From an uncultured Alphaproteobacteria bacterium (GTDB taxonomy: Bacteria; Pseudomonadota; Alphaproteobacteria; RF32; CAG-239), in contig CAKQMH010000002.1 in assembly GCA_934254915.1 (NCBI GenBank), positions 85,259-149,258 of the forward strand: DNA of 64,000 nt. The letters are read 5' to 3'. This document shows, piece after piece, positions 1 through 51,017 of the stretch. The notes below the pieces were generated by a model that had not been told where the DNA came from, did not search any database, and worked only from the letters and a program-made list of their open reading frames with translations. The translations under genes were made by a program, and so were the position numbers. Position 1 is the first letter of the stretch; each line of letters opens with the position of its first letter.

Positions 1-172
1 GCGCGGCAGCGATGACCAACTCAAAAACAAACTTGAAAAATATATTCACGATGAATACCCCTACTATTCTGAGGCTGACATTGTGGTTGAAACCAAAGAA
101 GAACAGGTCGACGTCACCGTCAATCGGGTAGTAGACGCCATTGCAAAATTTTTAGCACCGGCTAAGGCTTAA
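1..172 (+). CDS. 3' end of a gene that begins upstream of the window (tail ...ADIVVETKEEQVDVTVNRVVDAIAKFLAPAKA*); weak resemblance to shikimate kinase C-termini
   Basis: Open frame runs to the TAA at 170-172. No start lies in the window. Identity is uncertain. Confidence 0.3.
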   Translation, partial: RGSDDQLKNKLEKYIHDEYPYYSEADIVVETKEEQVDVTVNRVVDAIAKFLAPAKA

Positions 173-1563
173 GCGGCCATTGCTCCGATTAGCGATACCG
201 AAGAAATTGTATCGCCCATACCCACCAGTGTAACCGGCTTAGCAATCAAAATTGTAGGTACGGCAATTATATCAAAATCAAGATAACTGCCGATTCCCTC
301 GTCTATAAAATTATCATCGCCGATATATCCGCCGACAGCCTGCAACGCCTCTAACCCTTCAGTGCAGACATCACGACCGTTTGCCCACAATAACTTATCG
401 TGGTTATCCAAACTTCCCGTACCGGCTTTGCCGGCGGCAACCATTGCCGCCAAACACATGCCATCACGATTCTGTTGCGGTGAAAGGCGGAAATTTTTGT
501 TTTGTATCGTCAAATACATTCCGAACATATGTAACTGAATCCGTGCACATTTAACTTTTTGTTTGATTTTAAGCACTGCCTCCAACAAATTAACTGCACT
601 GGTATCAGCCTCGCAAATAGCCGCCAAATCATCTTCGCCGATAACCTGCAAAACCTCTATTGCCTCTCGTTCATTAAGCCCGATTGAATCAGCCTGTGAG
701 GCTATTTTTTCCACAATTGCCTGCCGCACAAGTTTATCTTGAGTCGATGCTACTTCCAGATGAATTAATGCCCCGTCGTTCTGCCAGCGTTTTATAACCG
801 GTGCTGATCCTTCAACCAGCGACACTCCGTCATTTTCTGCCGTCAGGGCATGATAACCCGACAACACTACGGCATTGACCGGATGCTGATTTAAATAGGC
901 GGTAAAGTTTTCATCCATAACCAAGCGGGAATTAAGCGGATCATAGGTTGCAATAAATCGATTCGCTTTTGGACAGGTTATTTTATGCTCACCCAATTCA
1001 AAACTGTCGCCGCGGTTAAATTCAATAATCCAGTGGATTAACGGCACATCGGTTGCGCGGTTTATTTTATGTGCTTTTTGCGGCATACCGTTTTCATCAA
1101 ACGACAACAGATTACCCAAATCAGCAAACAACTTAGCTTGTTGTTCCGGCAGCGAACTGCAATGATTATAAACTTTTTTAACCCCACAAACCGCCATCGC
1201 ATTAGCCACAATTCCGCCTTGCCCGCCCATTTGCAAACGATCAAAGCCTATGTTTTTTACCATCCAGTCAAAAACTTTTTTATACGCCAGCCATTCTTCG
1301 GCGATTCCTTTACTGAAACAGCGAAAAGCGCCTTTTACAAAATCTTGCGGCGTTTGCAGATAATGATGTTCGGGATTATTAAGTTCTTCCCACTCAACAC
1401 CCAAATCCGCCGCTATGCGCGCCAAAGTTTTACCGCTTATCTTTAATACCGCGTCAATATTGGTGTTAAAAGCCGTTGCCACGGATTCCACCTTTGCCAT
1501 TTGCGCTAAAACCTCAGCCGTTCCGGAGTAATGACGATTCCAGATTTTTATTTTTTCCAACAT
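169..1563 (-). CDS. ADP-dependent sugar kinase family protein (ADP-glucokinase/ADP-PFK-like, ribokinase superfamily)
   Basis: 464 aa. Carries a QMGGQGGIVANAMA motif (cf. GGNAGIMAN), an NEREA (NXXE) motif and a C-terminal VGMGDTISS (GXGD catalytic motif). Confidence 0.45.
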   Translation of the reverse strand: MLEKIKIWNRHYSGTAEVLAQMAKVESVATAFNTNIDAVLKISGKTLARIAADLGVEWEELNNPEHHYLQTPQDFVKGAFRCFSKGIAEEWLAYKKVFDWMVKNIGFDRLQMGGQGGIVANAMAVCGVKKVYNHCSSLPEQQAKLFADLGNLLSFDENGMPQKAHKINRATDVPLIHWIIEFNRGDSFELGEHKITCPKANRFIATYDPLNSRLVMDENFTAYLNQHPVNAVVLSGYHALTAENDGVSLVEGSAPVIKRWQNDGALIHLEVASTQDKLVRQAIVEKIASQADSIGLNEREAIEVLQVIGEDDLAAICEADTSAVNLLEAVLKIKQKVKCARIQLHMFGMYLTIQNKNFRLSPQQNRDGMCLAAMVAAGKAGTGSLDNHDKLLWANGRDVCTEGLEALQAVGGYIGDDNFIDEGIGSYLDFDIIAVPTILIAKPVTLVGMGDTISSVSLIGAMAA

Positions 1564-4993: not shown

Positions 4994-5908
4994 TTAATGA
5001 TGACAGTGGCCGTTGCAATGGCAATGTCCTTTATGATACCCGCACTCGCAATGATGGTTATCTTTTTGCTGCCGATAAGCTTCCCACGTGTTTTCCAACA
5101 GCATTGCTACCGTCATCGGTCCAACCCCTTTCGGTACCGGCGTAATAAAAGCAGCTTTCTCCTTAACTTCTTCAAAGTCGACATCGCCGCACAATTTACC
5201 GTTTTCATCTCGATTTATGCCGACATCAATTACGATTGCCCCTTGCTTAACCCACTCTTTTTTCACCATCTTAGCCTTGCCGCAAGCCGCTACGATAATA
5301 TCCGCTTCGCTTGCCAAAGCTGCCAGATTTTGAGTTTTGGAATGAGCGATTGTCACGGTGCAGTTTTGCGCCAGCAACAACATTGCTACCGGTTTTCCCA
5401 CAATATTTGAACGGCCGATAACCAAAGCTTTTTTTCCGGATAATTCCACTCCGGCTTGTGCCAACAGGCGCATGATTCCTTTCGGCGTTGCCGCAATTAT
5501 CGCTGACTTATCGCCTTTGACCAAACGCCCGATATTAACTTCGCCGAAACCGTCGACGTCCTTTTCCGCCGGAATCAATTGCAGGATTTTTTCACTGTCC
5601 AAATGTTGGGGAAGCGGCAGTTGTACAATAACTCCGTTAATATGCGGATTCGCACATAGTTCTTGCAAACTTTCGCTCAGCGCATGCTCGCCTATACCTT
5701 CGGCAAATTCCACCACCTCGCAGGCCATTCCCACTTCAGCGGCTGCCTTTTGTTTGTTGCGCACATAAATTTCGCCGGCTTCATTATCACCAACCTTAAC
5801 CACCGCCAAAACCGGCATATCTTCACCATCATCATCCGCAATTTGGCGAGCTAAATCACGGCGAATTTGTTCAGCCAGACTTTTACCGTCTAAAATTTGC
5901 GCTGTCAT
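4994..5908 (-). CDS. folD: Bifunctional methylene-THF dehydrogenase/methenyl-THF cyclohydrolase FolD with a His/Cys-rich C-terminal tail
   Basis: 304 aa. FolD core (LDGKSLAEQIR...GRSNIVGKP...TPVPKGVGPMTVAMLLENT) plus the tail HHCECGYHKGHCHCNGHCHH. Confidence 0.9.
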   Translation of the reverse strand: MTAQILDGKSLAEQIRRDLARQIADDDGEDMPVLAVVKVGDNEAGEIYVRNKQKAAAEVGMACEVVEFAEGIGEHALSESLQELCANPHINGVIVQLPLPQHLDSEKILQLIPAEKDVDGFGEVNIGRLVKGDKSAIIAATPKGIMRLLAQAGVELSGKKALVIGRSNIVGKPVAMLLLAQNCTVTIAHSKTQNLAALASEADIIVAACGKAKMVKKEWVKQGAIVIDVGINRDENGKLCGDVDFEEVKEKAAFITPVPKGVGPMTVAMLLENTWEAYRQQKDNHHCECGYHKGHCHCNGHCHH

Positions 5909-5911
5909 TTT

Positions 5912-6220
5912 CTAACCCTCTAACCATTGCTGAATTTTGTTTTGCAAATCTGCCGTATCGCCTTTCACTAAAATCTTTTTATAGCGATCGGTTTCACCGC
6001 TGACAATCTCAAAACTGCTTTTGGACACATGCAGCTGTTTGCTTAAATACGCCAACAGTTCCTGATTGGCTTTGCCTTTTTCAGGAACACTGATAACGTT
6101 TATTTTCAAAAACTCGCAGCCGGAAGAATCAACAAAAACATCGCTTTTTTTACAAGAAGAAGAGTTAGGCGTTAACCTAACTCTTAATAAAATACCTTCT
6201 TGTCTGTTTTCAAAAACCAT
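5912..6220 (-). CDS. DUF167 (YggU-like) protein
   Basis: 102 aa. Start abuts the yggT stop (ATGA overlap at 6220), as in the yggT-yggU pair. Confidence 0.55.
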   Translation of the reverse strand: MVFENRQEGILLRVRLTPNSSSCKKSDVFVDSSGCEFLKINVISVPEKGKANQELLAYLSKQLHVSKSSFEIVSGETDRYKKILVKGDTADLQNKIQQWLEG

Positions 6221-6519
6221 TAGACCATCATTGCACTGAGGCGATAAACCAAACGGCAGATAAACAGCAGCGCCAACAGCAAAATAAACGGTGAAAAATC
6301 AAAACCGGCAAACGGCGGAATTTTCTCTCTGATTTTGCTGTAGACCGGTTCTGTAAGCTTATCTAAAACTTCTACGGTTTTTTGAGCATATTTGTTAGAC
6401 GCTTCCAAAACCTTAAAATGAATCAGCCAATAAACAACTATTTGCACTACTACGATTTTAAAATAAATATCAGCCAACAAACCGATAATATAAAGGAAAG
6501 GTTCAAAAATCGCACCCAT
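6220..6519 (-). CDS. YggT family membrane protein
   Basis: 99 aa with two TM segments and a YGGT-like layout. Confidence 0.65.
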   Translation of the reverse strand: MGAIFEPFLYIIGLLADIYFKIVVVQIVVYWLIHFKVLEASNKYAQKTVEVLDKLTEPVYSKIREKIPPFAGFDFSPFILLLALLFICRLVYRLSAMMV

Positions 6520-6602
6520 AAATATACTCCTTAAAATAAGTCAAACTCTATGTTTTTCTATTCCAAATGCTTTTATCTGTCAACCTTTTTAACTAACTTC
6601 TG

Positions 6603-7601
6603 CTAGTGTTGGTTTTGCATCTGCATTTGCTGCAATTGGTGAAAACGCTCAACTGTCATGCCCTGATAACGTTTGACGCGCGGACGATATGCTTCCCTTT
6701 CGTCAATCACCTGATTATCGATTATCTGATTCTCAATCAGATTTTCATCTTCAATATCCTCTATTTCGGCTCTGTTTTTGCCATAGCGATAACCCATTAT
6801 CAGCAGCCGCATAGCCGCCCGTGAGTTGCGGCGCAGATTGTTAACTTTTTGCTGAGCTTCTTCATCATTTTGCGATACCGGATGAAAGACATTAACATCA
6901 ACCAGACTGTTTTCCAATTCATCACCGACTTTGTCTTTAATATATTCGTTTCCGCGGTTGTCTTTTTGTTTTTCGGCATCGGCATGAGCTTTGGTTTGCG
7001 ACATTTTAGTACGCAGCCGCCGCAGTTCACTCAACTTGAAGGTCATAAACGCTAATTTCTTTTGCGCCTCTTCTTTGTAAAATCCCTGCCCATGCAGTGC
7101 CGCCGCGCTGTACAAATCCATAACCCGTTTCATTTCGGTTTCGCGCATATCCATAAAACTGATAAACATATTGCGGGCATCAATTTCGGCATCTGTTGTT
7201 CCGCTGGCATAAATATCCCTTTCAATTTTTTGCTCCGCCATAACCCAATCACGATATTCCGTTTCGGGATTTTCACTGGCATCAATACGCTGCAGTGTAT
7301 CCGCCACCATAAAATCCAAATCATATGTGCTGACAGCTAATTTTTCACCGAGTTTTGCCACCGCATGGTGTTGGTTTTCCAACAAATTATCTGCACTGCT
7401 TATTAATTTTTCTTTTGATACCTGACTTAAAGCCTGCTTAACCCGCTGTTCTTTTTCTCGATCCATAGCGCTGAGTTGGTGCATATTGCCGACACTGGGT
7501 TTGATTTTGTTCAAACCCTCCTGATACCCCTTTTCAAAATCGGCGTACAAAGCGGCATATTCTTGATTATAATCCGTGGCAGACATGATTCGTCTCCTCA
7601 T
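6603..7601 (-). CDS. Hypothetical charged coiled-coil protein, translationally coupled to the upstream TerB-like gene
   Basis: 332 aa, E/K/Q-rich with no recognisable motif. ATGA overlap at 7601 with the TerB-like gene. Confidence 0.4.
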   Translation of the reverse strand: MRRRIMSATDYNQEYAALYADFEKGYQEGLNKIKPSVGNMHQLSAMDREKEQRVKQALSQVSKEKLISSADNLLENQHHAVAKLGEKLAVSTYDLDFMVADTLQRIDASENPETEYRDWVMAEQKIERDIYASGTTDAEIDARNMFISFMDMRETEMKRVMDLYSAAALHGQGFYKEEAQKKLAFMTFKLSELRRLRTKMSQTKAHADAEKQKDNRGNEYIKDKVGDELENSLVDVNVFHPVSQNDEEAQQKVNNLRRNSRAAMRLLIMGYRYGKNRAEIEDIEDENLIENQIIDNQVIDEREAYRPRVKRYQGMTVERFHQLQQMQMQNQH

Positions 7602-8062
7602 TAAAATTTTTCAAATATAATTTTGCCTTCTTCCAACCAGACAATCCGATCAATTACCCATTGGCTGATTTGTTGGATTTTATCCAGCTCCAAACCCATT
7701 GCCTGTCCGACGCGGCCGATTAACATAACCTCGTCATCCGACAAATCGCCATCCGTATTCGCCAGCATGCACATTTCCTTAACCAGCTCCATGGCAATGT
7801 GCCGATCTTTAATCACTTTAACCTCTTCCAACAAAGCCTCATCGCTTTCAACGTTTAAAATCTCGTCAAAACGGCTGGCCGGAACCGCATATGCCAAGGC
7901 CACTTCACGCACAAACTCGCGTTCATTTTCATCAAAATTACCGTCTATCTTGGCCAGTCTGACCAAAGCTTTTAAAAAGACAACTCTGACGTCTTCGCTC
8001 ATATCCGCTAAATTTTGCATATCGCTCTCCATTCTAAAGCCTGACATAAAATTTCTCCTCAT
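7601..8062 (-). CDS. TerB-like (tellurite-resistance TerB domain) protein
   Basis: 153 aa with a TerB-like helical pattern (FLKALVRLAKIDGNFDENEREFV...ANTDGDLSDDEVMLI). Confidence 0.5.
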   Translation of the reverse strand: MRRNFMSGFRMESDMQNLADMSEDVRVVFLKALVRLAKIDGNFDENEREFVREVALAYAVPASRFDEILNVESDEALLEEVKVIKDRHIAMELVKEMCMLANTDGDLSDDEVMLIGRVGQAMGLELDKIQQISQWVIDRIVWLEEGKIIFEKF

Positions 8063-18807: not shown

Positions 18808-19023
18808 ATGCCCGCAAACTTTTTGTCTGTCTTATATTACACCTTAGCTTTCGCTTTGGGCTTAGCCCTGATTGTTACTTTAGTAGCCTTCGGTGCCACC
18901 ATTTTTGCTTTGGCCTTTATTTATATTTTTGTACCGTTGTTTTTAGTTGCAACCATACGCTGGCTGTGGTTAAAATATAAGCTCAAAAAACAAGGATACA
19001 TAATTTACAATGACAAAAAGTAA
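18808..19023 (+). CDS. Small two-TM membrane protein
   Basis: 71 aa, hydrophobic, immediately downstream of dnaB. Confidence 0.35.
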   Translation: MPANFLSVLYYTLAFALGLALIVTLVAFGATIFALAFIYIFVPLFLVATIRWLWLKYKLKKQGYIIYNDKK

Positions 19024-19447
19024 CTTTTGGCAAACCAAAAAACTAAGCGAATTTAGCCCTGACGAATGGGAAAGTATTTGCACCCGTTGCGGTAAGTGCT
19101 GCCAAATCAAACTGCAGGACGAAGATACTGACGAAATTTTTTATACCGACCTTGTCTGCCGTTATTTTGATATCGACCATTGCAACTGTACTCAATATCA
19201 GAATCGTTGCCGTTTAGTTCCGACTTGTCTGAAACTGACGCCGCAAAATTTAGCTCATATTAATTGGATTCCGTACGACTGCGCATATCATATTTTGCAA
19301 ACTACCGGTGATTTGCCGGACTGGCATCCCTTAAAAACCGGCCAGACCTTAGCCCAAGAGCATTCGGTTCAAGGTAAAGTAATCAGTGAAACCATGGTTG
19401 CCGAAGACGAATGGGAAGATCACATCATTGAGGACGAAATACGATGA
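19010..19447 (+). CDS. YcgN/UPF0260 family cysteine-cluster protein (copy 1)
   Basis: 145 aa. CTRCGKCCQIKL...DHCNCTQYQNRC, close to E. coli YcgN. Confidence 0.7.
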   Translation: MTKSNFWQTKKLSEFSPDEWESICTRCGKCCQIKLQDEDTDEIFYTDLVCRYFDIDHCNCTQYQNRCRLVPTCLKLTPQNLAHINWIPYDCAYHILQTTGDLPDWHPLKTGQTLAQEHSVQGKVISETMVAEDEWEDHIIEDEIR

Positions 19448-19941
19448 ATGATTGGCCTGACGATACCTACAATCCGCAAAGCCGTTTTGACAACTTGAAT
19501 CAGGTTGAACCGGAATTTTGGAAAAAGAAAAAACTGGAGCAGATGAGTAAACAGGAGTGGGAGCTGCTTTGCGATGGCTGTGGCAAATGTTGTTTGAACA
19601 AACTCGATATTCGCGGCAAAATCAAATTCACCTGCACCTACTGCCGTTTTTTAGACCCGCACAGTTGCTTATGCAAAATTTATGAACATCGTTTTGCTCA
19701 AGTTCCCGATTGCCGCGATATTGACCTTGCAGCGGTAAGAGAAAGACCCCGCTGGCTTCCTAAAACCTGTGCCTATTGGCTGCTGGACAATGGTTATGAC
19801 CTGCCCGACTGGCATCCCTTAAAAACCGGACAAGCGGCTTCCGTCCATCAGGCTCAAATGTCCTTGCAGGGACGCAACATTGTTTCCGAAACCGGAGTTG
19901 ATGACTATGAAAATTACCTTGTTGACTGGCCGGACCTTTAA
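19444..19941 (+). CDS. YcgN/UPF0260 family cysteine-cluster protein (copy 2, tandem paralogue)
   Basis: 165 aa with CDGCGKCCLNKL...HSCLCKIYEHRF and the same WHPLKTGQ motif as copy 1. ATGA overlap with copy 1. Confidence 0.7.
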   Translation: MNDWPDDTYNPQSRFDNLNQVEPEFWKKKKLEQMSKQEWELLCDGCGKCCLNKLDIRGKIKFTCTYCRFLDPHSCLCKIYEHRFAQVPDCRDIDLAAVRERPRWLPKTCAYWLLDNGYDLPDWHPLKTGQAASVHQAQMSLQGRNIVSETGVDDYENYLVDWPDL

Positions 19942-21475: not shown

Positions 21476-22567
21476 TTATTTTTGACCATCAAACAACAAT
21501 AGCGAATTACCTTTGCGTTCCTGTGCCTTTTTCACGGCAAATATCGCCTGTTCTATCAACTTTTTGGCCGAATGCGCCGGATTGGGAAAAACGCTTGCCC
21601 CGATACTGAACTTCAATTGATGGGTTGTAAAATTATCGCTGACGCCGTTTTTCAAGACTTCTTTGACACGCGCCATTTCCATTTCCAAATCATGCTCATT
21701 GGCAACATCGGGCAGCAAAATCCAAAATTGATATTTTAGCCCGCGCGCCACTGTGGCATTTTTTTTCAAGTTCATAACCAGATTATAGCCGATTTTTTTC
21801 AAAACAAATTCATGCAGACTGATTTTTTTAAACTCTTCGGCATTATCAATACTGATTCCCATAACTGCGATTAAATCTTTCGGCAGCCGCACATCTTTGT
21901 AGTTTTCGTTATTAACCGCCATTTGTACCCGGTCTTCAAACAAAAAGAAGTTGGGCAAACCGGTTAATTCGTCATAGAGATTATTAAACTTGGTATCTTG
22001 TTTTGGCGGCTGATGACTGCTTAGCAAAATAAAGGAAAATCGATTAAAATCGGGTAAATAAATCGCGCTTAATTCTATTGGGATAATCCGATTGTTGGCA
22101 GCACGCAGATGAATACTCAATTGCTTATGCGAGGTAAGCATTTCACCGATATTTTCGGCCAACAACGTCCAATCACTCTTGTCAACAAACGATAAAAATG
22201 CTTGTCCCGTACCTTGATTAAAATCATCCAGAGCCAGCAAATTGCGTGCCTTCTTATTCAAATAGACAACTTTGTCATCGCTGACAATAACGACCATACG
22301 TTCGGAGCTGTCCAGAATATGAGCCGCCATTTCGCCCAAATTAACATCCATCGTTGCCCAGCTGTTATCAATATTGTTCAATGTTTCGGTCATCGGCATG
22401 ACATTATCCGCAACAGTTTCCGTTTCCGGCGGCGTTTCTAATGACTGCAAATCGACATTATACCTGGCTGCTTCACGCAAAATCCGCACATCCGGCATTT
22501 CATTTTTACGAAAAACACCGCTACCTTCTAAGGCTGATTGGTTTATGTCATCAAAGTCATCACGCAT
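21476..22567 (-). CDS. Sensor-domain protein with degenerate GGDEF domain (likely non-catalytic)
   Basis: YDELTGLPN, then RGLKYQF in place of RxGGDEF. Confidence 0.55.
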   Translation of the reverse strand: MRDDFDDINQSALEGSGVFRKNEMPDVRILREAARYNVDLQSLETPPETETVADNVMPMTETLNNIDNSWATMDVNLGEMAAHILDSSERMVVIVSDDKVVYLNKKARNLLALDDFNQGTGQAFLSFVDKSDWTLLAENIGEMLTSHKQLSIHLRAANNRIIPIELSAIYLPDFNRFSFILLSSHQPPKQDTKFNNLYDELTGLPNFFLFEDRVQMAVNNENYKDVRLPKDLIAVMGISIDNAEEFKKISLHEFVLKKIGYNLVMNLKKNATVARGLKYQFWILLPDVANEHDLEMEMARVKEVLKNGVSDNFTTHQLKFSIGASVFPNPAHSAKKLIEQAIFAVKKAQERKGNSLLLFDGQK

Positions 22568-22701
22568 TTTTGCATACCATTTTAAGCTTTTTTATAATCT
22601 TAAAACCAAAATTTATAAAAAACAATGTCTAAATCTTTGCAGTTTATTAATAAAACTGGTTTACACTTAGCTTATATATGTAAAAGCTGAAAGAAATCAA
22701 T

Positions 22702-24714
22702 ATGACTGAAAACGAAAATCTCAAACCCGAAGAATCAGCTTCTGTGGCCGAAACCGGCAGCGAATTTTTTTTGGTTAAAGAGCGCTATGAAATTAAGTTT
22801 GACGCTCCTTTGCCGCAATTTAACACTAACGGCGCGATTGCTTATAAAACACAGGATAAGACCAACCCTCAGCGCGAATTGTTTGCTCTGATTTGCGACA
22901 ACAATAATCCGCCGCGGTTATCAATTTTGCCTTATCTCAAGTCCATTGATCATCCGAATGTCTTAAAATTGGTTGATTTCGGCGTTGTTGACTATCCGGA
23001 AAAGAAAACCCGTAATATGGCGCTTATTTACAAACAACCGACCGGCCCCAAAGTCAATGATTTCAGCGAAGACTTAAATCTTAAAGGCAATGCCGAAAAA
23101 TTCAAATCTTTATTAATGTCTATGCTTTCCGCCAGCGAGAGTCTTAAAAGTTATAACATTACGCATCGCGCTTTGCGCTTGGACAATTTGTTTTATAAAG
23201 ATTCGACCCGTTCGGAAATTGTCGTCGGCGACTGTGCAGCTTCTTTCCCGTCGCTTTATCAGCCGGCCGAATATGAAACCGTTGAAAATTTGCTCTGCCT
23301 GCCGCAAGGACGCGGTAATGGCTCGGTAAGTTGCGATGTTTATGCCATTGCCGTGGTTATGATTAATCTTTTGCTTGGTAAAGAAAATAATTTTGGGCTG
23401 TCAACGCCCGAACTTCTGCACCAAAAACTAAAAAAAGGCTCTTATAATACACTCTTAGCCAACGAAAAAATTCACACCCCGTATACCGCCGTCTTAAAAG
23501 GTATGCTGTGTGACAACCCCGAAAATCGCTGGAACTACCTGCAAGTATATAATTATCTTGAAGGCAAAGCCGTTTCTTTCACCGAAGGTTCTGAACGCTC
23601 AATGCGCTCCCTCAGTCTTGGCGGTGAAAAATATTACACTCCTAAAAGTATGGCGATTGCAATGTTGGCTAATCCCGATGAGGCACTGGCAGTCATCAAA
23701 TCCGGCAAATTGCAGGAATGGATTAAAAACGGTCTTGAAAACGAAAAGCTGCTTGCCAAAATCGAAAAATTAATTACCGCCGATAAAGAAAAAAAAGAAT
23801 CTTCTACCGATTTGGTATCACAAATCTGCATTTTATTGGATAACTCATTACCGATTAAATGCGGCGATTTATATCTTTTCCCTGACGGATTACCGAAAGC
23901 TGTCTTTTATTACCTGCGCAACGGTCTGGAATTGAAAGACTTTTATGCCCTGCTTTCGACAGATTTAATCAAGCTTTGGTATCAGGAGCAGCCGTCTTTG
24001 CGCGCTCCGGCCAACAGCAATGAATTCAAAATTTATATTAACCGCAAAGATTACGGCTACGGCATTGACCGAATTATGTATGATTTTGACGATGATTTAC
24101 CTTGCACCAGTCAATTAGTAAACACCGACTTTATCAACTCGCCGTCACGCCTGCTTAAAGCTTTGGATTCCAACTACCAAGCTTTTAAGGAGCAAAAACC
24201 GTTTGATCGCAATATCATTGCTTATTTGCGCTGCAAGATGGGCAAAAAAATCGACGGTATCATCACCGACCTTAACTCTCTGCAGGAAAACATTCAAAGC
24301 AGTGCGATTATTCGTCTTTATTCCAATATTCAAAATAAGTACGGACCGGTTCAGCTGCATAACCTGACCTTATGGATTTTAAACATCACCAAGCCGATAA
24401 TTCGCTCTTATCACAACTTCAAATATCAAAAATATTTGGAACGCGAATTGGTAAAAGTCGCTAAAAGCGGTAAAATTATTGATCTTTACGATATTTTGGA
24501 AAACGAAGAAGCCAAACAAAAAGACCGCAGTGAATATTCCGAAGCCCTGAAGGAAATCCGCAGTCTGTTAAACGAAAAAAATATTCTTCAAACCGGCGGC
24601 AGCAAACTTGATGAACAATCACGCAATCTGGCTTTACGCTGCGGTTCGATTTTTGCGGTTTTAGCCATGATAACCTCTTTTATTTTCAGTCTGATTTACT
24701 GGGTGGTACAATAA
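22702..24714 (+). CDS. Tail-anchored protein-kinase-fold pseudokinase
   Basis: 670 aa with a protein-kinase-like order (HPNVLKL, HRALRLDN, GDC, SVSCDVYAIAVVMINLLLG) but the catalytic Asp and Gly-loop are missing. C-terminal TM. Confidence 0.5.
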   Translation: MTENENLKPEESASVAETGSEFFLVKERYEIKFDAPLPQFNTNGAIAYKTQDKTNPQRELFALICDNNNPPRLSILPYLKSIDHPNVLKLVDFGVVDYPEKKTRNMALIYKQPTGPKVNDFSEDLNLKGNAEKFKSLLMSMLSASESLKSYNITHRALRLDNLFYKDSTRSEIVVGDCAASFPSLYQPAEYETVENLLCLPQGRGNGSVSCDVYAIAVVMINLLLGKENNFGLSTPELLHQKLKKGSYNTLLANEKIHTPYTAVLKGMLCDNPENRWNYLQVYNYLEGKAVSFTEGSERSMRSLSLGGEKYYTPKSMAIAMLANPDEALAVIKSGKLQEWIKNGLENEKLLAKIEKLITADKEKKESSTDLVSQICILLDNSLPIKCGDLYLFPDGLPKAVFYYLRNGLELKDFYALLSTDLIKLWYQEQPSLRAPANSNEFKIYINRKDYGYGIDRIMYDFDDDLPCTSQLVNTDFINSPSRLLKALDSNYQAFKEQKPFDRNIIAYLRCKMGKKIDGIITDLNSLQENIQSSAIIRLYSNIQNKYGPVQLHNLTLWILNITKPIIRSYHNFKYQKYLERELVKVAKSGKIIDLYDILENEEAKQKDRSEYSEALKEIRSLLNEKNILQTGGSKLDEQSRNLALRCGSIFAVLAMITSFIFSLIYWVVQ

Positions 24715-25202
24715 TGATTAAAAAGAATCTCAAAAAAGCTAACTCTGCTCCCAAAGCCAAATTAACTTTATTCCAAAAATGGATTTTGGCTTTCGGCTTA
24801 TTTGTTCTGATTTTTGCTACTTTTCCGGCCGTTTTGATTATTCTTATCGGTCTGCTGCCGTCTTTAACGGTTTTGATCACCGATGCGCAAAATACACCCA
24901 AACTGACCATTGTCGGCTGTTTCAATCTTACCGGTGTTTTCGTCTGTATGAACAACATTTTGCAACAGGTAAATTCTCTTTCTGGTTTTTCTTTGGTTGA
25001 TAATGTTTTTAACCTGATTGTTATGCTTGGTTTAGCAGCCTTCGGCGTTGTTCTTTATTATGAACTGCCCAATTTTTTCATCACCATAGCTAAAATGTCG
25101 GCGCAAAAGCGACTTAATGTCATCAACCAGCGCTTGGACAAACTTGCGCTTGACTGGGGACAGGAAAGTGTTGAAAAAGCTTCCGGTAATTCCGGCAAAT
25201 AA
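24714..25202 (+). CDS. Integral membrane protein, translationally coupled to the pseudokinase
   Basis: 162 aa with 3-4 TM segments. TAATG overlap at 24714. Confidence 0.4.
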   Translation: MIKKNLKKANSAPKAKLTLFQKWILAFGLFVLIFATFPAVLIILIGLLPSLTVLITDAQNTPKLTIVGCFNLTGVFVCMNNILQQVNSLSGFSLVDNVFNLIVMLGLAAFGVVLYYELPNFFITIAKMSAQKRLNVINQRLDKLALDWGQESVEKASGNSGK

Positions 25203-25208
25203 CATTTA

Positions 25209-25237
25209 AAAGAGCCGCCCCAAGCGGCTCTTTTTCT
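25209..25237. terminator. Bidirectional intrinsic terminator
   Basis: agagccgc-cccaa-gcggctct followed by ttttt. Confidence 0.6.
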
Positions 25238-25239
25238 TC

Positions 25240-26115
25240 CTAATTAACCACCCCTATTGCTTTACGAATTTTTTTAATCGAATTTAACTCGATTTGGCGG
25301 ACGCGTTCTTTGGAAATATTATAAATTTTGCTCAAATCATCCAATGTAACCGCTTTGTCATACAGCCGGCGTTTAAACAAAATATCTTTTTCCCGTTTGT
25401 TCAGACAATTTATCGCCTGCTTAAACAACCCCCGCCGATACTGCATCACTTCACTGTAGGCCAAAGTTTCTTCCTGATTCGGTTTGTTGTCGGCAATAAA
25501 ATCCAGCCATTCCGTACCGCTTTCCGAAGAAGCATCGATTACCGTATTTAACGAGCCGTCATGCGCCTTCATCCGCATATTCATATCCGTAACATCCTGT
25601 ACGCTCACATCCAGCGATGAGGCAATATTATTTAACACTTTAGGAGACAATTCCCGATCATCGATCAAATTGAGTTTATTTTTGATTTTGCGCAAATTAA
25701 AAAACAATTTCTTTTGCGCTGCCGTTGTTCCGATTTTTACCAACGACCACGAATTTAAGATATATTTTTGGATTGAAGCCTTTATCCACCACAACGCATA
25801 AGTCGAAAAGCGAAAACCTTTAGCCGGTTCAAATTTTTCCACCGCATAAAGCAATCCGATATTTCCTTCCGAAATCATTTCAATAGTCGGCAAACCGTAA
25901 CCGCGATATTTGGATACGACTTTTACCACCAAACGTAAATGCGAGCTGACTAATTTTTGCGCAATCTGCGGATCTTTGGTTATTTGGTACTCCGATGCCA
26001 GAGCATATTCTTCATCTTGCGAAAGCAACGGATATTGTCTGATTCGTTGTAAATATCTCACCATGTTTAATTCGGGCGAGAAGTCAATTCCACTAAGTCC
26101 GAGGGCGTTTTCCAT
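25240..26115 (-). CDS. rpoH: RNA polymerase sigma-32 (heat-shock sigma factor RpoH)
   Basis: 291 aa. RpoH box AQKKLFFNLRK. Confidence 0.85.
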   Translation of the reverse strand: MENALGLSGIDFSPELNMVRYLQRIRQYPLLSQDEEYALASEYQITKDPQIAQKLVSSHLRLVVKVVSKYRGYGLPTIEMISEGNIGLLYAVEKFEPAKGFRFSTYALWWIKASIQKYILNSWSLVKIGTTAAQKKLFFNLRKIKNKLNLIDDRELSPKVLNNIASSLDVSVQDVTDMNMRMKAHDGSLNTVIDASSESGTEWLDFIADNKPNQEETLAYSEVMQYRRGLFKQAINCLNKREKDILFKRRLYDKAVTLDDLSKIYNISKERVRQIELNSIKKIRKAIGVVN

Positions 26116-26247: not shown

Positions 26248-27240
26248 CTAAAGATTCTCAAGAGTCGTCAGTAATTGTTTAAAATCATCGGGAAAATCCG
26301 AATCAAACTGCATAAATTCTCCTTTTCGCGGATGAACAAACCCCAATGACTTTGCATGCAGCGCCTGCCGCGGAAAATTATTAATAAAATCGACTGCTTG
26401 CGGATTAAAATTTTTGCCGCTGATCTTTTTGCTCTTAACATACAGCTGATCACCGATTAAATGATTCCCCTGTGAGCTTAAATGCACTCTGATTTGGTGA
26501 GTGCGTCCGGTTTCCAAATTACACTGCACCAGACTGGCGGCATTTTGATATATTTTCAGTGTTTTGTAATTTGTAACCGCGTTTTTACCGTTTTTCTTAA
26601 CCACTGCCATTTTTTTACGATCATACGGACTACGCCCGATTAAGGATTCGATTCGTCCGGATAACGGCTCGATTACTCCGAAAACCGCGGCCACATATGT
26701 CCGCTCAATTGAATGTTCGGCAAACTGCGTGCAAAGAGCTTTGTGGGTCTGATCGTTTTTAGCCACCACCAATAACCCTGATGTGTCTTTATCAATTCGA
26801 TGAACAATCCCCGGACGTTTAACTCCGCCGATTCCCGACAAATTTCCCTGACAATGAAACAACAACGCGTTAACCAGTGTTTTGTCAGGTGAGCCGACGG
26901 CCGGATGCACCGTCATTCCCGCCGGCTTGTTAACCACAATCAAATCATCGTCTTCATAAACCACTTCCAGCGGAATATCCTGCGGCAACGGAATGGCCTC
27001 AACCGGCTCCGGAATATGCAAAACATAAACCTCATTTTCTTTGACTTTGGCTGAACTGTCGGTTATCGGCGTTTCTCCGCGATAGACATTTCCGTCTTTC
27101 AACAAACGCTGTATTTGCGAACGCGATATCTCCGGAAAACTCATAACCAGAAATTTATCAATCCGCCAGCCGTTACAGTTTTTATTAACCATTGCTGTGT
27201 TATTATCTTCGGTATCAGTCATTTTAGCCTTTATAAACAA
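26248..27240 (-). CDS. rluD: 23S rRNA pseudouridine synthase RluD
   Basis: S4 domain plus HRIDKDTSGLLVVAK. Confidence 0.8.
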   Translation of the reverse strand: MFIKAKMTDTEDNNTAMVNKNCNGWRIDKFLVMSFPEISRSQIQRLLKDGNVYRGETPITDSSAKVKENEVYVLHIPEPVEAIPLPQDIPLEVVYEDDDLIVVNKPAGMTVHPAVGSPDKTLVNALLFHCQGNLSGIGGVKRPGIVHRIDKDTSGLLVVAKNDQTHKALCTQFAEHSIERTYVAAVFGVIEPLSGRIESLIGRSPYDRKKMAVVKKNGKNAVTNYKTLKIYQNAASLVQCNLETGRTHQIRVHLSSQGNHLIGDQLYVKSKKISGKNFNPQAVDFINNFPRQALHAKSLGFVHPRKGEFMQFDSDFPDDFKQLLTTLENL

Positions 27241-27292: not shown

Positions 27293-27583
27293 ATGGATAA
27301 ACTTAAATTAGTCAAAATTATTGTTTGTGTGCTTACTTTTTTATTGGTTTTCGGAACATTACTGCTTTTTGGCAGTATTTACCAAAAAACCCGCTCTGTC
27401 GGCAGCCAAACTGACCGCGTTTTATCCCTCGCCCAACCGCAAGGCAGTCACATTGCCGGTTATTCATACCAAGACGGCAAACTGGTCATCTTGATTAAAG
27501 ACGGCGGTTTAGCCGACCGCCTGTTATTGCTTGACACCGCCGACAATCGCGTTGACACTACCGTTTATTTGACCAAGGAGTAA
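27293..27583 (+). CDS. Small N-terminally membrane-anchored hypothetical protein (first gene of the T4CP cluster)
   Basis: 96 aa. Single TM IIVCVLTFLLVFGTLLLFGSI. Confidence 0.4.
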   Translation: MDKLKLVKIIVCVLTFLLVFGTLLLFGSIYQKTRSVGSQTDRVLSLAQPQGSHIAGYSYQDGKLVILIKDGGLADRLLLLDTADNRVDTTVYLTKE

Positions 27584-37196: not shown

Positions 37197-37778
37197 TTAC
37201 TGAAAAACCCAAATTATGGTATTAAACTTTACATTATCGCTGCTTTTGACGTTTTCACTGACACACACGGCCGCTGCCATACTTGCCGTCACTGGCAGTT
37301 TATTTTGCGTATTGGTACTTTTGATACCGTAAGGCGTACTGTTAATAGTCATTGATACTAAATCGGTAGTGCCTCTGTTAAACCAATTTATTTGCGCCAG
37401 ATTCAAACACGCACGATTGCTTAAACTGTCAAATTCAATAGTATAATAATCACCACCGTCTACACATCCGACTTTAACATTTCCACCCAAACGATTATAT
37501 ATTCCGCCGTTGGTATACATTTGTGACGGAACAAGTTTGTTTTGATTAAGCTTATCAGCCGTAATATCGCAAAGTTCACTATAATCTCCGTCAAAAGAAT
37601 AGCGATCTTTTATGCTTTTTTGAATATCACGCACTTCACTCTCAACAGCATAAACTCTAAACGAGGTAAAAAGATTACCGGCAAGCTTAAATGTCGATAT
37701 ACCCAAAGCCGTAATTACGCATAATACGCCTAGCATTTCGACCATAGTTGCTCCACTTTGATTATTTTTATTGCGCAT
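37197..37778 (-). CDS. Type IV prepilin-like protein (class III signal: G|ATMVEM..., Glu at +5)
   Basis: 193 aa. MRNKNNQSG|ATMVEMLGVLCVITALGISTF. Strong aaggag RBS. Confidence 0.55.
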   Translation of the reverse strand: MRNKNNQSGATMVEMLGVLCVITALGISTFKLAGNLFTSFRVYAVESEVRDIQKSIKDRYSFDGDYSELCDITADKLNQNKLVPSQMYTNGGIYNRLGGNVKVGCVDGGDYYTIEFDSLSNRACLNLAQINWFNRGTTDLVSMTINSTPYGIKSTNTQNKLPVTASMAAAVCVSENVKSSDNVKFNTIIWVFQ

Positions 37779-42627: not shown

Positions 42628-42806
42628 TGAATATACAATTTACTAATACATTTTAAAATATTTATATGGGCTTGGCAGGATGTGTACAACTTATGAACTG
42701 TTTACCCTGACCATTCATATAACTTTTATTTGACATATTTCAATTAACATAATATAAAAAACCCAATCCTACCTGCTTTAACTATCTATTTCATTATAGG
42801 TTTTTC

Positions 42807-44060
42807 ATGAATTTAAAAGATTTAAAACAAAAATCTCCTACTGAGTTGCTAACTCAGGCGGAAGAATTGGGTATTGAAGATGCTTCTTCAATGCGTGTTC
42901 AGGATTTAATGTTTGCTATCCTTAAAAAAGTTGCCAGTGAAGACAAAACCATTTACGGTGAAGGTACAATTGAGGTTATGCAAGACGGTTTTGGTTTTCT
43001 GCGTTCGGCGCAGTCCAATTATCTTGCCGGTCCTGATGATATTTATGTTTCTCCGGCTCAGGTTAAAAAATTCGGTCTGCGTACCGGTGATACGGTCGAA
43101 GGTGAAATCCGCGCTCCTAAGGATAATGAGCGCTACTTTGCCTTGCTTAAAGTTAATAAGATAAACTTTGAAGATCCTGAAAAATCTAAGTTGCGGGTTA
43201 ATTTTGATAACTTAACTCCGCTATACCCGACCCAAAAACTTGATTTTGATATCATTAACGGTGAAAAAGATTATACTACTCGTGTTATTGACCTTATTTC
43301 GCCGCAGGGAAAAGGACAACGCGGTTTGATTGTTGCTCCGCCGCGTACTGGTAAAACCGTAATGCTGCAAAATATCGCTCATGCGATTGCTACTAATCAT
43401 CCGGAATGTTATTTAATCGTTCTTTTGATTGATGAGCGTCCGGAGGAAGTTACTGATATGACTCGTTCCGTTAAGGGAGAAGTTATATCTTCTACCTTTG
43501 ATGAACCGGCTTCGCGCCATGTTCAGGTTGCCGAAATGGTTATCGAAAAAGCCAAACGTTTGGTTGAAACCAAAAAAGATGTGGTTATCCTGCTCGATTC
43601 CATTACTCGTTTAGGACGTGCTTACAATACGGTAATTCCATCTTCCGGTAAAGTTTTAACCGGTGGTGTTGATGCTAATGCTTTGCAGCGTCCGAAACGT
43701 TTGCTTGGTGCGGCACGTAATGTGGAAGAAGGCGGTTCTTTGACCATTATTGCCACGGCTTTGATTGATACCGGATCGCGTATGGATGAAGTTATTTTTG
43801 AAGAGTTTAAAGGTACCGGTAACTCTGAAATTATTCTTGATCGCAAACTTACGGATAAACGTTTGTTCCCGACGATTGATATTACTCGTTCCGGTACGCG
43901 TAAGGAAGAATTATTGGTTAGTAAAGAACGCTTATCTAAAATGTGGGTTCTGCGTCGTGTTCTTATGCAAATGGGTATGACTGATGGTATGGAGTTCTTG
44001 CTTGATAAGCTGCGTCTGAGTAAAGATAATGATGATTTCTTCAACAATATGAATTCATAA
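42807..44060 (+). CDS. rho: Transcription termination factor Rho
   Basis: 417 aa. N-terminal domain, RNP-like FGFLR and Walker [13 protein letters not shown]. Confidence 0.95.
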
Positions 44061-44065
44061 AAATC

Positions 44066-44095
44066 TAAAAGCTCCGTTCATCGGAGCTTTTTTTA
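44066..44095. terminator. Bidirectional intrinsic terminator
   Basis: aaaagctccg-ttca-tcggagctttt followed by ttttt. Confidence 0.65.
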
Positions 44096-44764
44096 TAAAT
44101 TCAACAAATATTGTTTTACTTCCGCCATGTTATAAAAAATCTCGCTTATACCAAGATTTTTAATCTCTTTATTGATATAGTCTTTATTATACAGCTCACT
44201 GCCTAAGAATGCTATAACCTGCATTTTTGCTCTTTTACCGGCCGTCATTCCGGCGATAGAGTCTTCGATCACAATACAGTCTTGTGGTTCATACCCCATG
44301 ACTTCAGCGGCTAATTGGTATAAATCAGGTTCGGGCTTGCCATATTCAACCATATCTGCCGTAAAGACTTTGTCCGTCGGAAAATATTTTTCAATCCCGA
44401 CACAATGGATCTTTTCAGCTGTTTTTGATGCTATACCTCCGGTTGCTATACATTGTTCAAATTGTTTTAATTTGAAAATATCTTCGATTCCGTCGGTCAA
44501 GGCAAAACCTTTTAACATTTTTTGCATATCCCTGGTCATTGCCTCATTCCAAAATTCATCAGAAGTTTTAATCCCTATTTTATCTAACACTTCTTTTTTT
44601 GTTTTATCGCTCATCCCTGCTAAAAAAGATGTTGTTGTTTTAAAATCCCAATCCAGTCCGAATTTTTCGTTTATTAAATCCATACGTGTTTGCAGCCATA
44701 ATTTTTCCGTATCGGCGATTACACCGTCAAAGTCCCAAATAATTAACTTTCGTTTGTGTTCCAT
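44093..44764 (-). CDS. HAD-superfamily hydrolase (beta-phosphoglucomutase-like subfamily IA)
   Basis: LIIWDFDGVIADTE. Confidence 0.6.
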   Translation of the reverse strand: MEHKRKLIIWDFDGVIADTEKLWLQTRMDLINEKFGLDWDFKTTTSFLAGMSDKTKKEVLDKIGIKTSDEFWNEAMTRDMQKMLKGFALTDGIEDIFKLKQFEQCIATGGIASKTAEKIHCVGIEKYFPTDKVFTADMVEYGKPEPDLYQLAAEVMGYEPQDCIVIEDSIAGMTAGKRAKMQVIAFLGSELYNKDYINKEIKNLGISEIFYNMAEVKQYLLNL

Positions 44765-44958
44765 AATAAAATCAACCTCAACTTTAAAAAATTCGAGTCT
44801 GTATAAAGCCCGTAGAAAAGAATTTTAACCATTTTATGATACACTTATTAAAATTGGGTAAAATACCTCCCCTGAGTCAAAAAATCGCGTATTTTAAACC
44901 CTTGCTCAAATTTGTGTTTTGCATTATAAGTTTACAAGGATTAATGAGGATTAAGATA

Positions 44959-46302
44959 ATGGATAATAAAACAATTTATGCTCTGTCTACGGTTTATGGC
45001 AAATCAGGAGTTGCGGTAATTCGTATTTCAGGGACAAACGCGTTAGAAGCTGTTAAGTATATGACTGATTTGTCTGTTGCTGACCTTAAGCCGCGTTATG
45101 CTTATTTTGTTTCGTTGCATCATTCTCTTACTCGCCAAACTATAGATAAATGCCTTTTATTGTATTTTAAGGCGCCTAATTCGTTTACCGGTGAAGATAT
45201 TGTTGAGTTGCAGGTTCATGGTTCTAAAGCCGTAATTAAGGCTTCTATGGACTCTTTATCGCAGCTTAAAGACTTTCGCTTGGCTGAAGCCGGAGAATTT
45301 TCCAAACGTGCCTTTTATAATCAGAAAATGGATTTAACTGAAGCGGAAGGTCTGGCCGATTTGATTGATGCCGAAACTTCCGAACAACAAAAGTATGCTA
45401 TTCGCCAAATGGAGGGCGGACTTAAAAACCTCTACAATGATTGGCGCGAAACTCTGCTTAAAATTTTAGCTCATCTTGAAGCTTATATCGATTTTCCTGA
45501 CGAAGATATACCGCATAGTGTTGTTGATACGATGATGAACGATGTATTTAAACTTCGTAATTCGATTATGGAACATCTGCAAGGTGATAATATTGGTGAG
45601 CGTCTGCGTGAGGGTTTTCGCGTTGTTATTGTCGGACCGCCCAATGCCGGTAAATCAAGCTTATTAAATGCCATAGCCAATCGCGAGGCGGTGATTGTTT
45701 CGGATATTGCCGGCACAACTCGTGATGCGATTGATATACATCTTGATCTTGGCGGCTATCCGATTATTTTTACTGATACGGCCGGTCTGCGCGAGGCCGA
45801 AGAAGAAATTGAGCAAAAAGGCATTGCGCTTGCTTATCGTAAAATTCAAGATGCTGATTTGTTAATATGTTTATTTGATGCTGAAAAAGACTCTGTTCAA
45901 CTGTTTGATAATATTAAAAAATCATTTAAAAACAGTATTTTGACGGTAGCTAATAAAGCTGATAAATTATTACCTGATAAAATTGCTGAATTATCTGCTG
46001 CCGGCTGTCTGGTTATATCAGCAAAACACAAAGACGGAGTAAAAATATTGCTGGATAATATTAAACAGCAAATTTCCGAACGTTTTACTTCCAACTCAAA
46101 TTTACTGATTACACGTCAGCGCTATCGTGATGCCCTAAAGTTATGTTTAGAAAATCTGCAGATGTTCAGTTTTGATAAAGAGATAGAATTGACGGCAGAA
46201 GATATCAGATTGGCCGCCCGTGAATTAGGTAAAATCACCGGACGGATCGAAGTTGATGAAATTCTTGATAAAATTTTCGGAAGTTTTTGTATCGGCAAAT
46301 AA
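44959..46302 (+). CDS. mnmE: tRNA modification GTPase MnmE (TrmE)
   Basis: G-domain GPPNAGKSSLLN, DTAGLRE, NKAD and a C-terminal ...CIGK. Start moved to the ATG at 44959 (RBS gagga); the tracked upstream extension is rejected. Confidence 0.9.
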   Translation: MDNKTIYALSTVYGKSGVAVIRISGTNALEAVKYMTDLSVADLKPRYAYFVSLHHSLTRQTIDKCLLLYFKAPNSFTGEDIVELQVHGSKAVIKASMDSLSQLKDFRLAEAGEFSKRAFYNQKMDLTEAEGLADLIDAETSEQQKYAIRQMEGGLKNLYNDWRETLLKILAHLEAYIDFPDEDIPHSVVDTMMNDVFKLRNSIMEHLQGDNIGERLREGFRVVIVGPPNAGKSSLLNAIANREAVIVSDIAGTTRDAIDIHLDLGGYPIIFTDTAGLREAEEEIEQKGIALAYRKIQDADLLICLFDAEKDSVQLFDNIKKSFKNSILTVANKADKLLPDKIAELSAAGCLVISAKHKDGVKILLDNIKQQISERFTSNSNLLITRQRYRDALKLCLENLQMFSFDKEIELTAEDIRLAARELGKITGRIEVDEILDKIFGSFCIGK

Positions 46303-46340
46303 TATAAATAAGACAATTTTTTATAACGGATATTAATAAG

Positions 46341-48188: not shown

Positions 48189-48212
48189 CTTCAGTCCAAA
48201 TCAAAAGCTCTT

Positions 48213-48270
48213 AAATAGATTCAAAAAACGATGTTTAACTCATTGTTTTTCGAATCTATTTATTTTTATC
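48213..48270 (+). terminator. Long imperfect hairpin terminator after mnmG
   Basis: aaatagattcaaaaaacgatg-tttaact-cattgtttttcgaatctattt followed by a T-rich tract. Confidence 0.5.
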
Positions 48271-48336
48271 TAAAATATGTGTTTATAACTTGTTTTTATA
48301 CTTTTAAAATCATCAGAAAAATAATAAAAAATAATT

Positions 48337-50765: not shown

Positions 50766-50777
50766 GGAAACCAAAAA

Positions 50778-51017
50778 ATGACTATTTTAGAACAAATGTT
50801 GGAAAGATGCTCCAAAGCAGGTTATACCACCACCAAAAACGTTGAAAAAATTGCCAATGCCAAAAAAATGATGTTTGGTGAAAGCGAATGGCAGCGTTGC
50901 CCATGTGACGGACAAAATCCCGCGCGTTATTGTATTTCTGAAACCTGCCGCGCCGATATTGAGCGCGATGGTGAATGCCATTGCCATTGCTATTGCAAAA
51001 AGCAAGCCGCTGAATAG
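50778..51017 (+). CDS. Small Cys-rich protein with CPC...CHCHC motifs (ferredoxin-thioredoxin-reductase catalytic-subunit-like)
   Basis: 79 aa. ...CPCDGQNPARYCISETCRADIERDGECHCHCYC. Confidence 0.35.
   Translation: MTILEQMLERCSKAGYTTTKNVEKIANAKKMMFGESEWQRCPCDGQNPARYCISETCRADIERDGECHCHCYCKKQAAE

Follow-up and report, generated by a model that had tools for sequence, protein, structure and literature searches.

What does a bacterial gene encode when its product follows a protein kinase through the order of its motifs but departs from it at the catalytic residues, and when it runs directly into a gene for a small membrane protein? The question arises from a 64,000-nt stretch of DNA from an uncultured alphaproteobacterium (GenBank assembly GCA_934254915.1, contig CAKQMH010000002.1, positions 85,259 to 149,258 of the forward strand), the whole of which is referred to here as the window. 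Two overlapping open reading frames (ORFs), ORF A and ORF B, were initially annotated from the sequence as a tail-anchored, catalytically dead kinase and its membrane-protein partner. Our analysis identifies ORF A as a member of a large, previously undescribed family of membrane-anchored bacterial pseudokinases, set apart by motif descriptions, which has lost the residues of phosphotransfer and kept the metal ligands.

Fold of the Kinase-Like Domain

ORF A is a genuine gene and no artefact of assembly, since an identical product is encoded on eight independent metagenome contigs. The motifs quoted in the initial annotation are all present in it, at residues 84-90 (HPNVLKL), 155-162 (HRALRLDN), 176-178 (GDC) and 208-226 (SVSCDVYAIAVVMINLLLG), and both ORFs lie where that annotation had placed them.

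The resemblance to kinases is well above chance. Residues 78-283 match the Pfam Pkinase profile at E=7.2e-8, although the score of 32.6 bits barely exceeds the gathering score of 31.7. A phmmer search of PDB sequences gives CDPK, CDK and PknB kinases with E-values down to 4e-8, and a profile of 58 members of the ORF A family matches 407 kinases in the PDB at E<1e-3, the top one at 9e-14. The AlphaFold2 model, built from a 40-sequence alignment, has a predicted local distance difference test score of 87.3 and a predicted template modelling score of 0.82. Its N-lobe is textbook-like, with strands at residues 22-25, 29-36, 45-52 and 60-64 and the αC helix at 73-81, and the C-lobe is present. Foldseek aligns the model with approximately 2000 kinase chains in the PDB (template modelling scores of ∼0.7 to PknB and ULK1); the nearest structures to the kinase-like domain are WNK1, ASK1, PknB and CaMK/CDPK, with WNK1 the closest. 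By profile and by structure, this is a bilobal domain of the protein-kinase-like (Hanks-type, or eukaryotic protein kinase) fold superfamily. Pfam, phmmer, the family profile, AlphaFold2 and Foldseek all agree on this point, and the concern that the fold might not be kinase-like is not borne out.

Residues of the Pseudo-Active Site

Conservation was assessed in 148 representatives of the ORF A family, no two of which are more than 50% identical, and the residue counts below refer to this sample. When compared with a catalytically competent Hanks-type kinase (PF00069), ORF A lacks the Gly-rich loop (GxGxxG), the β3 Lys and αC Glu, and the HRD Asp, but has both metal ligands, which are the catalytic-loop Asn and the DFG Asp. 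In the catalytic loop the HRD Asp is replaced by Ala157 and the loop Lys by Arg159, while Asn162 is kept. Position 157 is Ala in 79 representatives, Ser in 20, Gly in 20, Asn in 17 and Asp in one, so the loss of this Asp stands as it was first described, and the same is true of the degenerate Gly-rich loop. The latter region reads FNTNGAIAY in ORF A, without GxGxxG, and has the family consensus LD-S-P-x-A-x-A-Y.

The β3 Lys and αC Glu, which the initial annotation did not mention, are also gone. Strand β3 has the sequence L60-F-A62-L-I64, followed by C65, and contains no Lys. Its register was set from the AlphaFold2 strand (60-64) and from spacing; with A62 as the Ala of VAIK, the Lys position falls on I64, and with an off-by-one shift it falls on C65. 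Neither choice restores the residue, since position 64 is mostly Val, Ile, Leu or Ala (Lys or Arg in one of 148) and position 65 is basic in none. The αC Glu position, counted backwards from HPN, is I75 in ORF A and Ala, Ile, Val or Leu in most members. Because the Gly-rich loop, β3 Lys, αC Glu and HRD Asp are all missing, ORF A is predicted to be incapable of canonical phosphotransfer.

A kinase may compensate for lost residues, as the WNK kinases do for the β3 Lys, and ORF A might on that account still be active. This we consider to have little chance of being correct. The WNK-type “no lysine” kinases combine a β2 Lys with an intact HRD Asp, and ORF A has neither. In the family, the catalytic base is absent from 147 of the 148 sequences, the compensating β2 Lys is absent as well (position 45 is Ala in 99, and position 46 is Lys or Arg in only 65), most members have a hydrophobic residue where the αC Glu should be, and the Gly-rich loop is missing.

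The initial annotation described GDC as standing in place of DFG, which implies that the Asp was lost, and here it needs correction. HMMER places V-G-D-C-A on V-D-F-G-L, so that the Asp of GDC, D177, is the DFG Asp and has been kept. The position is Asp in 77 representatives and Glu in 66 (acidic in 143 of 148), flanked by G176 in 146 and C178 in 114, and the catalytic-loop Asn162 is kept in 145. Further near-invariant positions of the kinase domain are R72 (142), R159 (130), Q187 (143) and E192 (140), together with R204-G205-x-G207 (∼141), D212 (147), D271 (all 148) and R276-W277 (∼145). Ala47 and Ala62, which occupy the spine positions that sandwich adenine, are nearly invariant across the family. 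Conservation along ORF A is highest in the kinase C-lobe, where 18 columns reach 90% or more, which points to a functional surface at the cleft or the activation segment. Judged from these alignments, the family represents an ancient and stable pseudokinase state, in which the catalytic site has been degraded selectively and not wholesale, and in which the metal ligands and the activation-segment surface are under strong constraint.

Such a pattern might also be that of a non-canonical enzyme, comparable to SelO (AMPylation) or SidJ (glutamylation via adenylation), that would use the retained metal ligands and the conserved arginines on a substrate such as ORF B or another membrane-proximal protein. 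We regard this as unlikely, but it is the main rival to the scaffold or sensor role proposed below. It would account for the persistence of Asn162 and of an acidic residue at 177 where the phosphotransfer-specific residues have gone, for the nearly invariant spine alanines, and for the conservation of Arg72, Arg159 and Arg204, and SelO and SidJ are documented precedents (PMC12599244). They are like ORF A in having a kinase fold without the canonical phosphotransfer residues but with metal ligands, and may be functional analogues. However, their motif sets and domain contexts are different and no sequence relationship is detectable: a Pfam scan of ORF A at E≤1 gives Pkinase and PK_Tyr_Ser-Thr only, and not SelO (PF02696). 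The family also has neither a Gly-rich loop nor a conserved basic residue in β2/β3 to hold phosphates, and for a precise catalytic metal site it would be unusual that half of the members have Glu instead of Asp at the DFG position.

C-Terminal Domain, Tail Anchor and Membrane Partner

As the initial annotation proposed, the kinase-like domain is followed by a helical region and a C-terminal transmembrane anchor, seen here as helices in the AlphaFold2 model and in the hydropathy profile (residues 650-668 of 670). The helical domain has no match in Pfam, NCBIfam or the PDB. Its family-invariant positions are P384, G452, G454, Y460, C468, S470, D502, Q544 and D608. An internal duplication of a unit of one β-hairpin and three helices was considered for this domain and is unsupported (hhalign probability of 1.7%).

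Two stalk helices (602-631 and 633-649) lead into the anchor, and in the AlphaFold2 model the second of these is continuous with it (helices 602-631 and 633-669). A hydrophobic 19-mer lies within the last 45 residues, with 0-12 residues beyond it, in 146 of the 148 representatives. The sole other hydrophobic 19-mer of ORF A, at 207-225, is the buried αF helix of the kinase fold. By sequence, ORF A has the features of a tail-anchored membrane protein, namely a single transmembrane segment at the extreme C-terminus and no signal peptide, and a tail-anchored, cytoplasm-facing topology is likely to be a property of the whole family.

ORF B begins with a basic N-terminus, continues with approximately four hydrophobic segments, in agreement with the 3-4 transmembrane helices initially ascribed to it, and ends in an amphipathic helix that carries the conserved W148-G149. 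The hydropathy profile gives segments at 15-59, 64-83 and 89-125, the first of which is long enough for a helical hairpin. With four transmembrane helices and a positive-inside bias, both ends of the protein would be cytoplasmic. The invariant residues of the ORF B family are P49, N71, G111, P119, W148 and G149, and the conserved positions of the C-terminal helix are R133, L137, L144, W148 and G149. A word-based search with ORF B finds only 11 close relatives, none with a name or a Pfam domain; the wider family was recovered only through synteny and jackhmmer. ORF B and its orthologues from Azospirillum, Magnetospirillum and Caenispirillum have no match in Pfam, NCBIfam or the PDB.

Organization of the Gene Pair

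ORF A and ORF B are organised as a two-gene operon. The stop codon of the first and the start codon of the second have one base in common (...CAATAATGATT, TAATG), which agrees with the translational coupling initially proposed. At other loci, the gap between the two genes is mostly −10 to +33 nt. The features of the pair and its immediate surroundings are collected in Table 1.

Table 1. Features of the pseudokinase/membrane protein locus, in window coordinates.
Feature	Position	Strand	Extent	Basis or remark
Promoter-like site, sigma-70-like (TTTGCA-18-TATAAT)	22569..22598	+	∼100 nt 5' of the ORF A start codon	10 of 12 consensus matches
ORF A, tail-anchored pseudokinase (predicted), whole gene	22702..24714	+	670 aa	ORF list
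Kinase-like domain	22765..23571	+	aa ∼22-290	N-lobe strands 22-111, αC 73-81, C-lobe 113-290
Catalytic-loop remnant, H155-R-A-L-R-L-D-N162	23164..23187	+	aa 155-162	HMMER alignment onto HRDLKPEN
G176-D177-C178, DFG equivalent	23227..23235	+	aa 176-178	VGDCAAS aligned to VDFGLS (HMMER)
C-terminal all-helical domain	23602..24591	+	aa ∼301-630, ∼330 aa	G452-x-G454-x-D/E-R457..Y460..C468-x-S470 and D502 family-invariant
Tail-anchor transmembrane helix	24649..24705	+	aa 650-668, two residues beyond	hydropathy 2.28
ORF B, polytopic membrane protein	24714..25202	+	162 aa	start overlaps ORF A stop (TAATG)
GC-rich hairpin, AAAAGAGCCGC-TTG-GGGCGGCTCTTTT	25208..25234	.	12-pair stem	A and T runs on flanks; terminator scan
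rpoH, sigma-32-type sigma factor	25240-26115	-		Pfam label; convergent to the pair
rluD-type pseudouridine synthase	26248-27240	-		Pfam label; convergent to the pair
VirD4/TraG-type type IV coupling protein	32010-34223	+	737 aa	PF02534, 2e-54

The number of promoter-like sites in the region is not above that expected from shuffled sequence, and the site upstream of ORF A is therefore weak evidence for a promoter. The hairpin lies inside the 37-nt gap that separates the stop codons of ORF B and of the convergent rpoH, and is probably a bidirectional terminator for these two genes.

Distribution and Synteny

Close homologues of ORF A number at least 282 (51-100% identity, 660-716 aa) and come from metagenome-assembled genomes (MAGs) of uncultured “Alphaproteobacteria bacterium”. 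An exhaustive profile search with the family gives 973 clusters at 50% identity (E<1e-30); among the 150 clusters listed, almost all are full length (600-790 aa), with a handful of fragments. In a scan of one genome per species, seeded with a 6-sequence alignment (two broader ones, A2 and A3, had diverged too far to seed it), relatives of ORF A occur in 462 genomes. The best 80 of these 462 include Magnetospirillum, Paramagnetospirillum, Phaeospirillum, Azospirillum (several species, including A. brasilense), Aliidongia, Stellaceae, Terasakiella, Caenispirillum, Telmatospirillum, Inquilinus, Elstera, Pelagibius, Thalassospiraceae and Kiloniellaceae. Contigs from MAGs labelled “Actinomycetota” and “Bacteroidota” (L023 and L028) also encode such proteins; these share 71-86% identity with the Magnetospirillum or Phaeospirillum orthologues, which makes a binning error in the public records likely.

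The membrane partner goes with the pseudokinase. When jackhmmer was run from ORF B against the 5239 six-frame ORFs of 87 fetched loci, a homologue was found immediately downstream of the pseudokinase gene, on the same strand, at 82 of the 87. No other matches occur among the 5239 ORFs, except for second copies at two loci with a tandem duplication. These two are Rhodospirillales/Aliidongia MAGs in which the whole pair is duplicated (L010, 5887-11250; L013, 5914-11239), and both copies keep the arrangement of the pair and the pseudokinase motifs (HRSIRPSN/HRGIRPGN and LGDC).

The surroundings of the pair are also conserved. Most loci have the genes in the order purA(+) > pseudokinase(+) > B(+) < rpoH(-) < rluD(-), which we take to be ancestral. 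PurA ends directly 5' of the pair at 68 of 75 loci, and RpoH lies 3-230 nt past ORF B at 47 of 55 loci, which represent very divergent genera, with RluD behind it. In the clade of the genome studied here, a PAS-GGDEF gene takes the place of purA. In Rhodospirillales-type Alphaproteobacteria the pair is a core module, inherited vertically and kept in synteny; it is uncharacterised but not rare. It had initially been thought not to be a standard alphaproteobacterial module, and this view gives way to the 462 species genomes and the 82 loci. In sum, the dead-kinase fold and the membrane pair of the initial annotation hold up, while the implied loss of the DFG Asp and the rarity of the pair do not.

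This distribution bears directly on two further explanations. According to the first, ORF A would be an anti-phage defence kinase, as might be read from an NCBIfam match to the MAD6 protein kinase (NF047741) at E=9e-5. The match scores 21.2 bits where the cut-off is 460 and is limited to the generic kinase C-lobe, so that ORF A does not belong to that family. Moreover, the pair is single-copy, syntenic and core-chromosomal across hundreds of species, which is the opposite of the pattern of a defence island, and the probability of a defence role is close to nil.

According to the second, the pair would control the adjacent RpoH, for example by tethering sigma-32 to the membrane or sequestering it. 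The short distance to a convergent rpoH at most loci is what suggests this, and that adjacency is the sole evidence. The convergent orientation and the intervening hairpin argue against it, as do the lineages that keep the pair without rpoH at this position (L006 and L007) and the lack of a sigma-32-type promoter 5' of the pair at 47 loci; the neighbourhood from purA to rpoH-rluD may be no more than ancestral synteny. We consider control of RpoH very unlikely. The same 47 upstream regions were scanned for CtrA, sigma-32, EcfG, sigma-54 and GANTC boxes, and none is enriched.

Comparison with Known Pseudokinases

Apart from its missing catalytic residues, ORF A differs from the Hanks-type kinases in a short β3-αC loop, in an R-G-x-G loop after the APE position, and in that the kinase-like domain is followed, within one protein, by an unrelated helical domain of 330 aa and a tail anchor. 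Seven families of bacterial pseudokinases have been described (ActPs1-3, GLW, CP1, DYD and DLHK), and individual cases such as EssB/YukC, MviN, SidJ and SelO have also been covered (bioRxiv 10.1101/2025.01.12.632604; PMC12599244). The motif combination of ORF A matches none of the seven, as judged by their published motif descriptions.

The GLW pseudokinases are proteobacterial and C-terminally membrane-anchored (bioRxiv 10.1101/2025.01.12.632604; PMC12599244), and like ORF A they lack the β3 Lys and HRD Asp. Their members, however, have G-L-W for H-R-D and a poly-Leu/Trp β3, and the DFG Asp is always absent, whereas the ORF A family has H-R-[ASGN], A-L-[IV]-C and G-[DE]-C; on these published motif descriptions, ORF A is not a GLW pseudokinase. 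The MviN/MurJ-linked pseudokinase ActPs3 of Mycobacterium is likewise a membrane-attached bacterial pseudokinase with a regulatory scaffold role. It is actinobacterial and fused to a polytopic flippase, its activation loop is deleted and all its motifs are degraded. In ORF A, by contrast, the polytopic partner is separate and small, and conservation peaks in the activation segment.

EssB/YukC, of Firmicute type VII secretion, shares with ORF A a cytoplasmic bacterial pseudokinase on a single transmembrane tether and a scaffold role (a proposed one for ORF A). EssB ends in a sizeable extracellular domain, its three catalytic motifs are all degraded, and its gene lies in ess/yuk secretion operons. 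ORF A has almost no extracytoplasmic part (0-12 residues follow the transmembrane helix in its family), keeps the Asn and the DFG acid, carries a different cytoplasmic helical domain, and is found in the conserved context of purA and rpoH-rluD instead of secretion genes. It is therefore not a member of EssB/YukC.

The precedent of EssB/YukC, a pseudokinase in the membrane that serves as scaffold for a secretion machine (PMC12599244), nonetheless invites a comparable reading here, in which ORF A would be an accessory or scaffold subunit of a type IV secretion coupling-protein block. Such a block (27293-34223, +) lies 2-9 kb downstream of the pair and comprises the coupling protein and four unannotated genes, an arrangement that is conserved in clade relatives (L004 and L005). 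The block is confined to this clade, being present with the pair at 2 of approximately 80 distant loci, while the pair is conserved at all of them, and rpoH and rluD, on the opposite strand, separate it from the pair. The phyletic pattern largely refutes a type IV secretion link as a general explanation, and we consider the subunit role highly improbable. Within the block, the four proteins (318, 520, 161 and 414 aa) have no match in Pfam or NCBIfam, and a 96-aa DUF6476-like protein precedes the coupling protein. The block is flanked by rluD/rpoH and by yacG, RNase G, maf and dksA, and neither a relaxase nor VirB4 is close by.

Bacterial pseudokinases have barely been studied, and the ORF A family would be the eighth beside the seven listed. 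About half of the close homologues of ORF A fall below the Pfam Pkinase threshold, with scores of 28.8-35 bits recorded in the family, which may explain why an atlas seeded from Pfam did not single the family out. In the source records the homologues are annotated as hypothetical or as “serine/threonine protein kinase” only, and the latter is a label that genes of this family should not carry. Several traits favour the family as an object of study: approximately 1000 clusters at 50% identity in a single major alphaproteobacterial radiation; a clean signature, with phosphotransfer residues lost and metal ligands kept; a small membrane protein as obligate partner; and a C-terminal domain to which no relative is known. 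Among the bacteria with orthologues are the genetically tractable Azospirillum brasilense and Magnetospirillum, so that function can be tested directly.

Proposed Role of the Pair

We favour, with some reserve, a reading in which the two proteins form a complex at the membrane that acts as a scaffold or sensor and does not phosphorylate, and in which the conserved pseudo-active site binds a ligand or a partner. ORF A would be an inner-membrane protein held by its tail, with all of its remaining mass in the cytoplasm: a Hanks-fold pseudokinase, the 330-aa helical domain, a helical stalk and one C-terminal transmembrane helix. The conserved cleft would comprise Asn162, Asp/Glu177, His155, Arg159, Arg72, Gln187, Glu192 and the family-specific R204-G-x-G207 loop, and could accommodate either a ligand, perhaps a nucleotide or metal, or a partner peptide. 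ORF B, co-translated with ORF A, would assemble with its tail anchor, such that the transmembrane bundle packs against the tail helix and the cytoplasmic C-terminal helix of ORF B contacts ORF A. Membrane pseudokinase scaffolds have precedents in EssB/YukC and MviN (PMC12599244). The complex between the two proteins, the binding of a ligand and a role in signalling are what we infer from the sequences and the predicted fold.

Three points weigh against this proposal. The kept metal ligands and Ala47 and Ala62 are equally compatible with a non-canonical enzymatic activity. The genes purA, rpoH and rluD are housekeeping genes that give no functional pointer, and their adjacency to the pair may be historical only. 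Finally, a search of the literature on such alphaproteobacterial pseudokinases gave only the DivL-type histidine pseudokinases, a general atlas and a review.

A bolder reading can also be drawn, although we think it distinctly unlikely. Here the pair would be an ancient, lineage-defining membrane machine in which the “dead” kinase binds nucleotide and metal through the Asn and Asp/Glu and either carries out SelO- or SidJ-like chemistry other than phosphoryl transfer or acts as a nucleotide-gated switch on its four-helix membrane partner. It might then provide an input to the adjacent sigma-32 stress pathway, and the helical domain of 330 aa would represent a previously unseen fold family.

Other Features of the Window

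No active kinase or PP2C phosphatase that could act as a partner is found within the 64-kb window. In the clade relative L004, and only there, a separate trio of a 484-aa kinase, a PP2C phosphatase and a VWA-like protein (5173-8047, -) lies 3-5 kb upstream of the pair. The PAS and GGDEF protein that is divergent from the pseudokinase gene (21476-22567, -) is conserved at this site within the clade. With a GGDEF signature that looks degenerate (…MGISIDNAEEF…), it may be a non-catalytic protein related to cyclic di-GMP.

The window is core chromosome close to the replication origin and probably spans the origin region. The genes rho, mnmE, mnmG and parB are clustered at ∼42800-50800, the cumulative GC skew has its minimum at ∼44-45 kb, and the origin-proximal markers in the window are rho, mnmE, mnmG, parB, dnaX, dnaB and lnt.

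Three minor observations concern genes elsewhere in the window. Two tandem, overlapping paralogues of the YcgN cysteine-cluster family are located at 19010-19447 and 19444-19941 (+), each with an NCBIfam E-value of ∼1e-50. A PilS-type (type IVb) pilin-like protein of 193 aa (37197-37778, -; PF08805, 2e-11) adjoins the flagellar regulator gene fliX (36762-37184). Near the start of the window, at 169-1563 (-), is a member of the ADP-dependent phosphofructokinase/glucokinase family (PF04587, 9e-70), a family that is more usual in archaea and eukaryotes than in Alphaproteobacteria.

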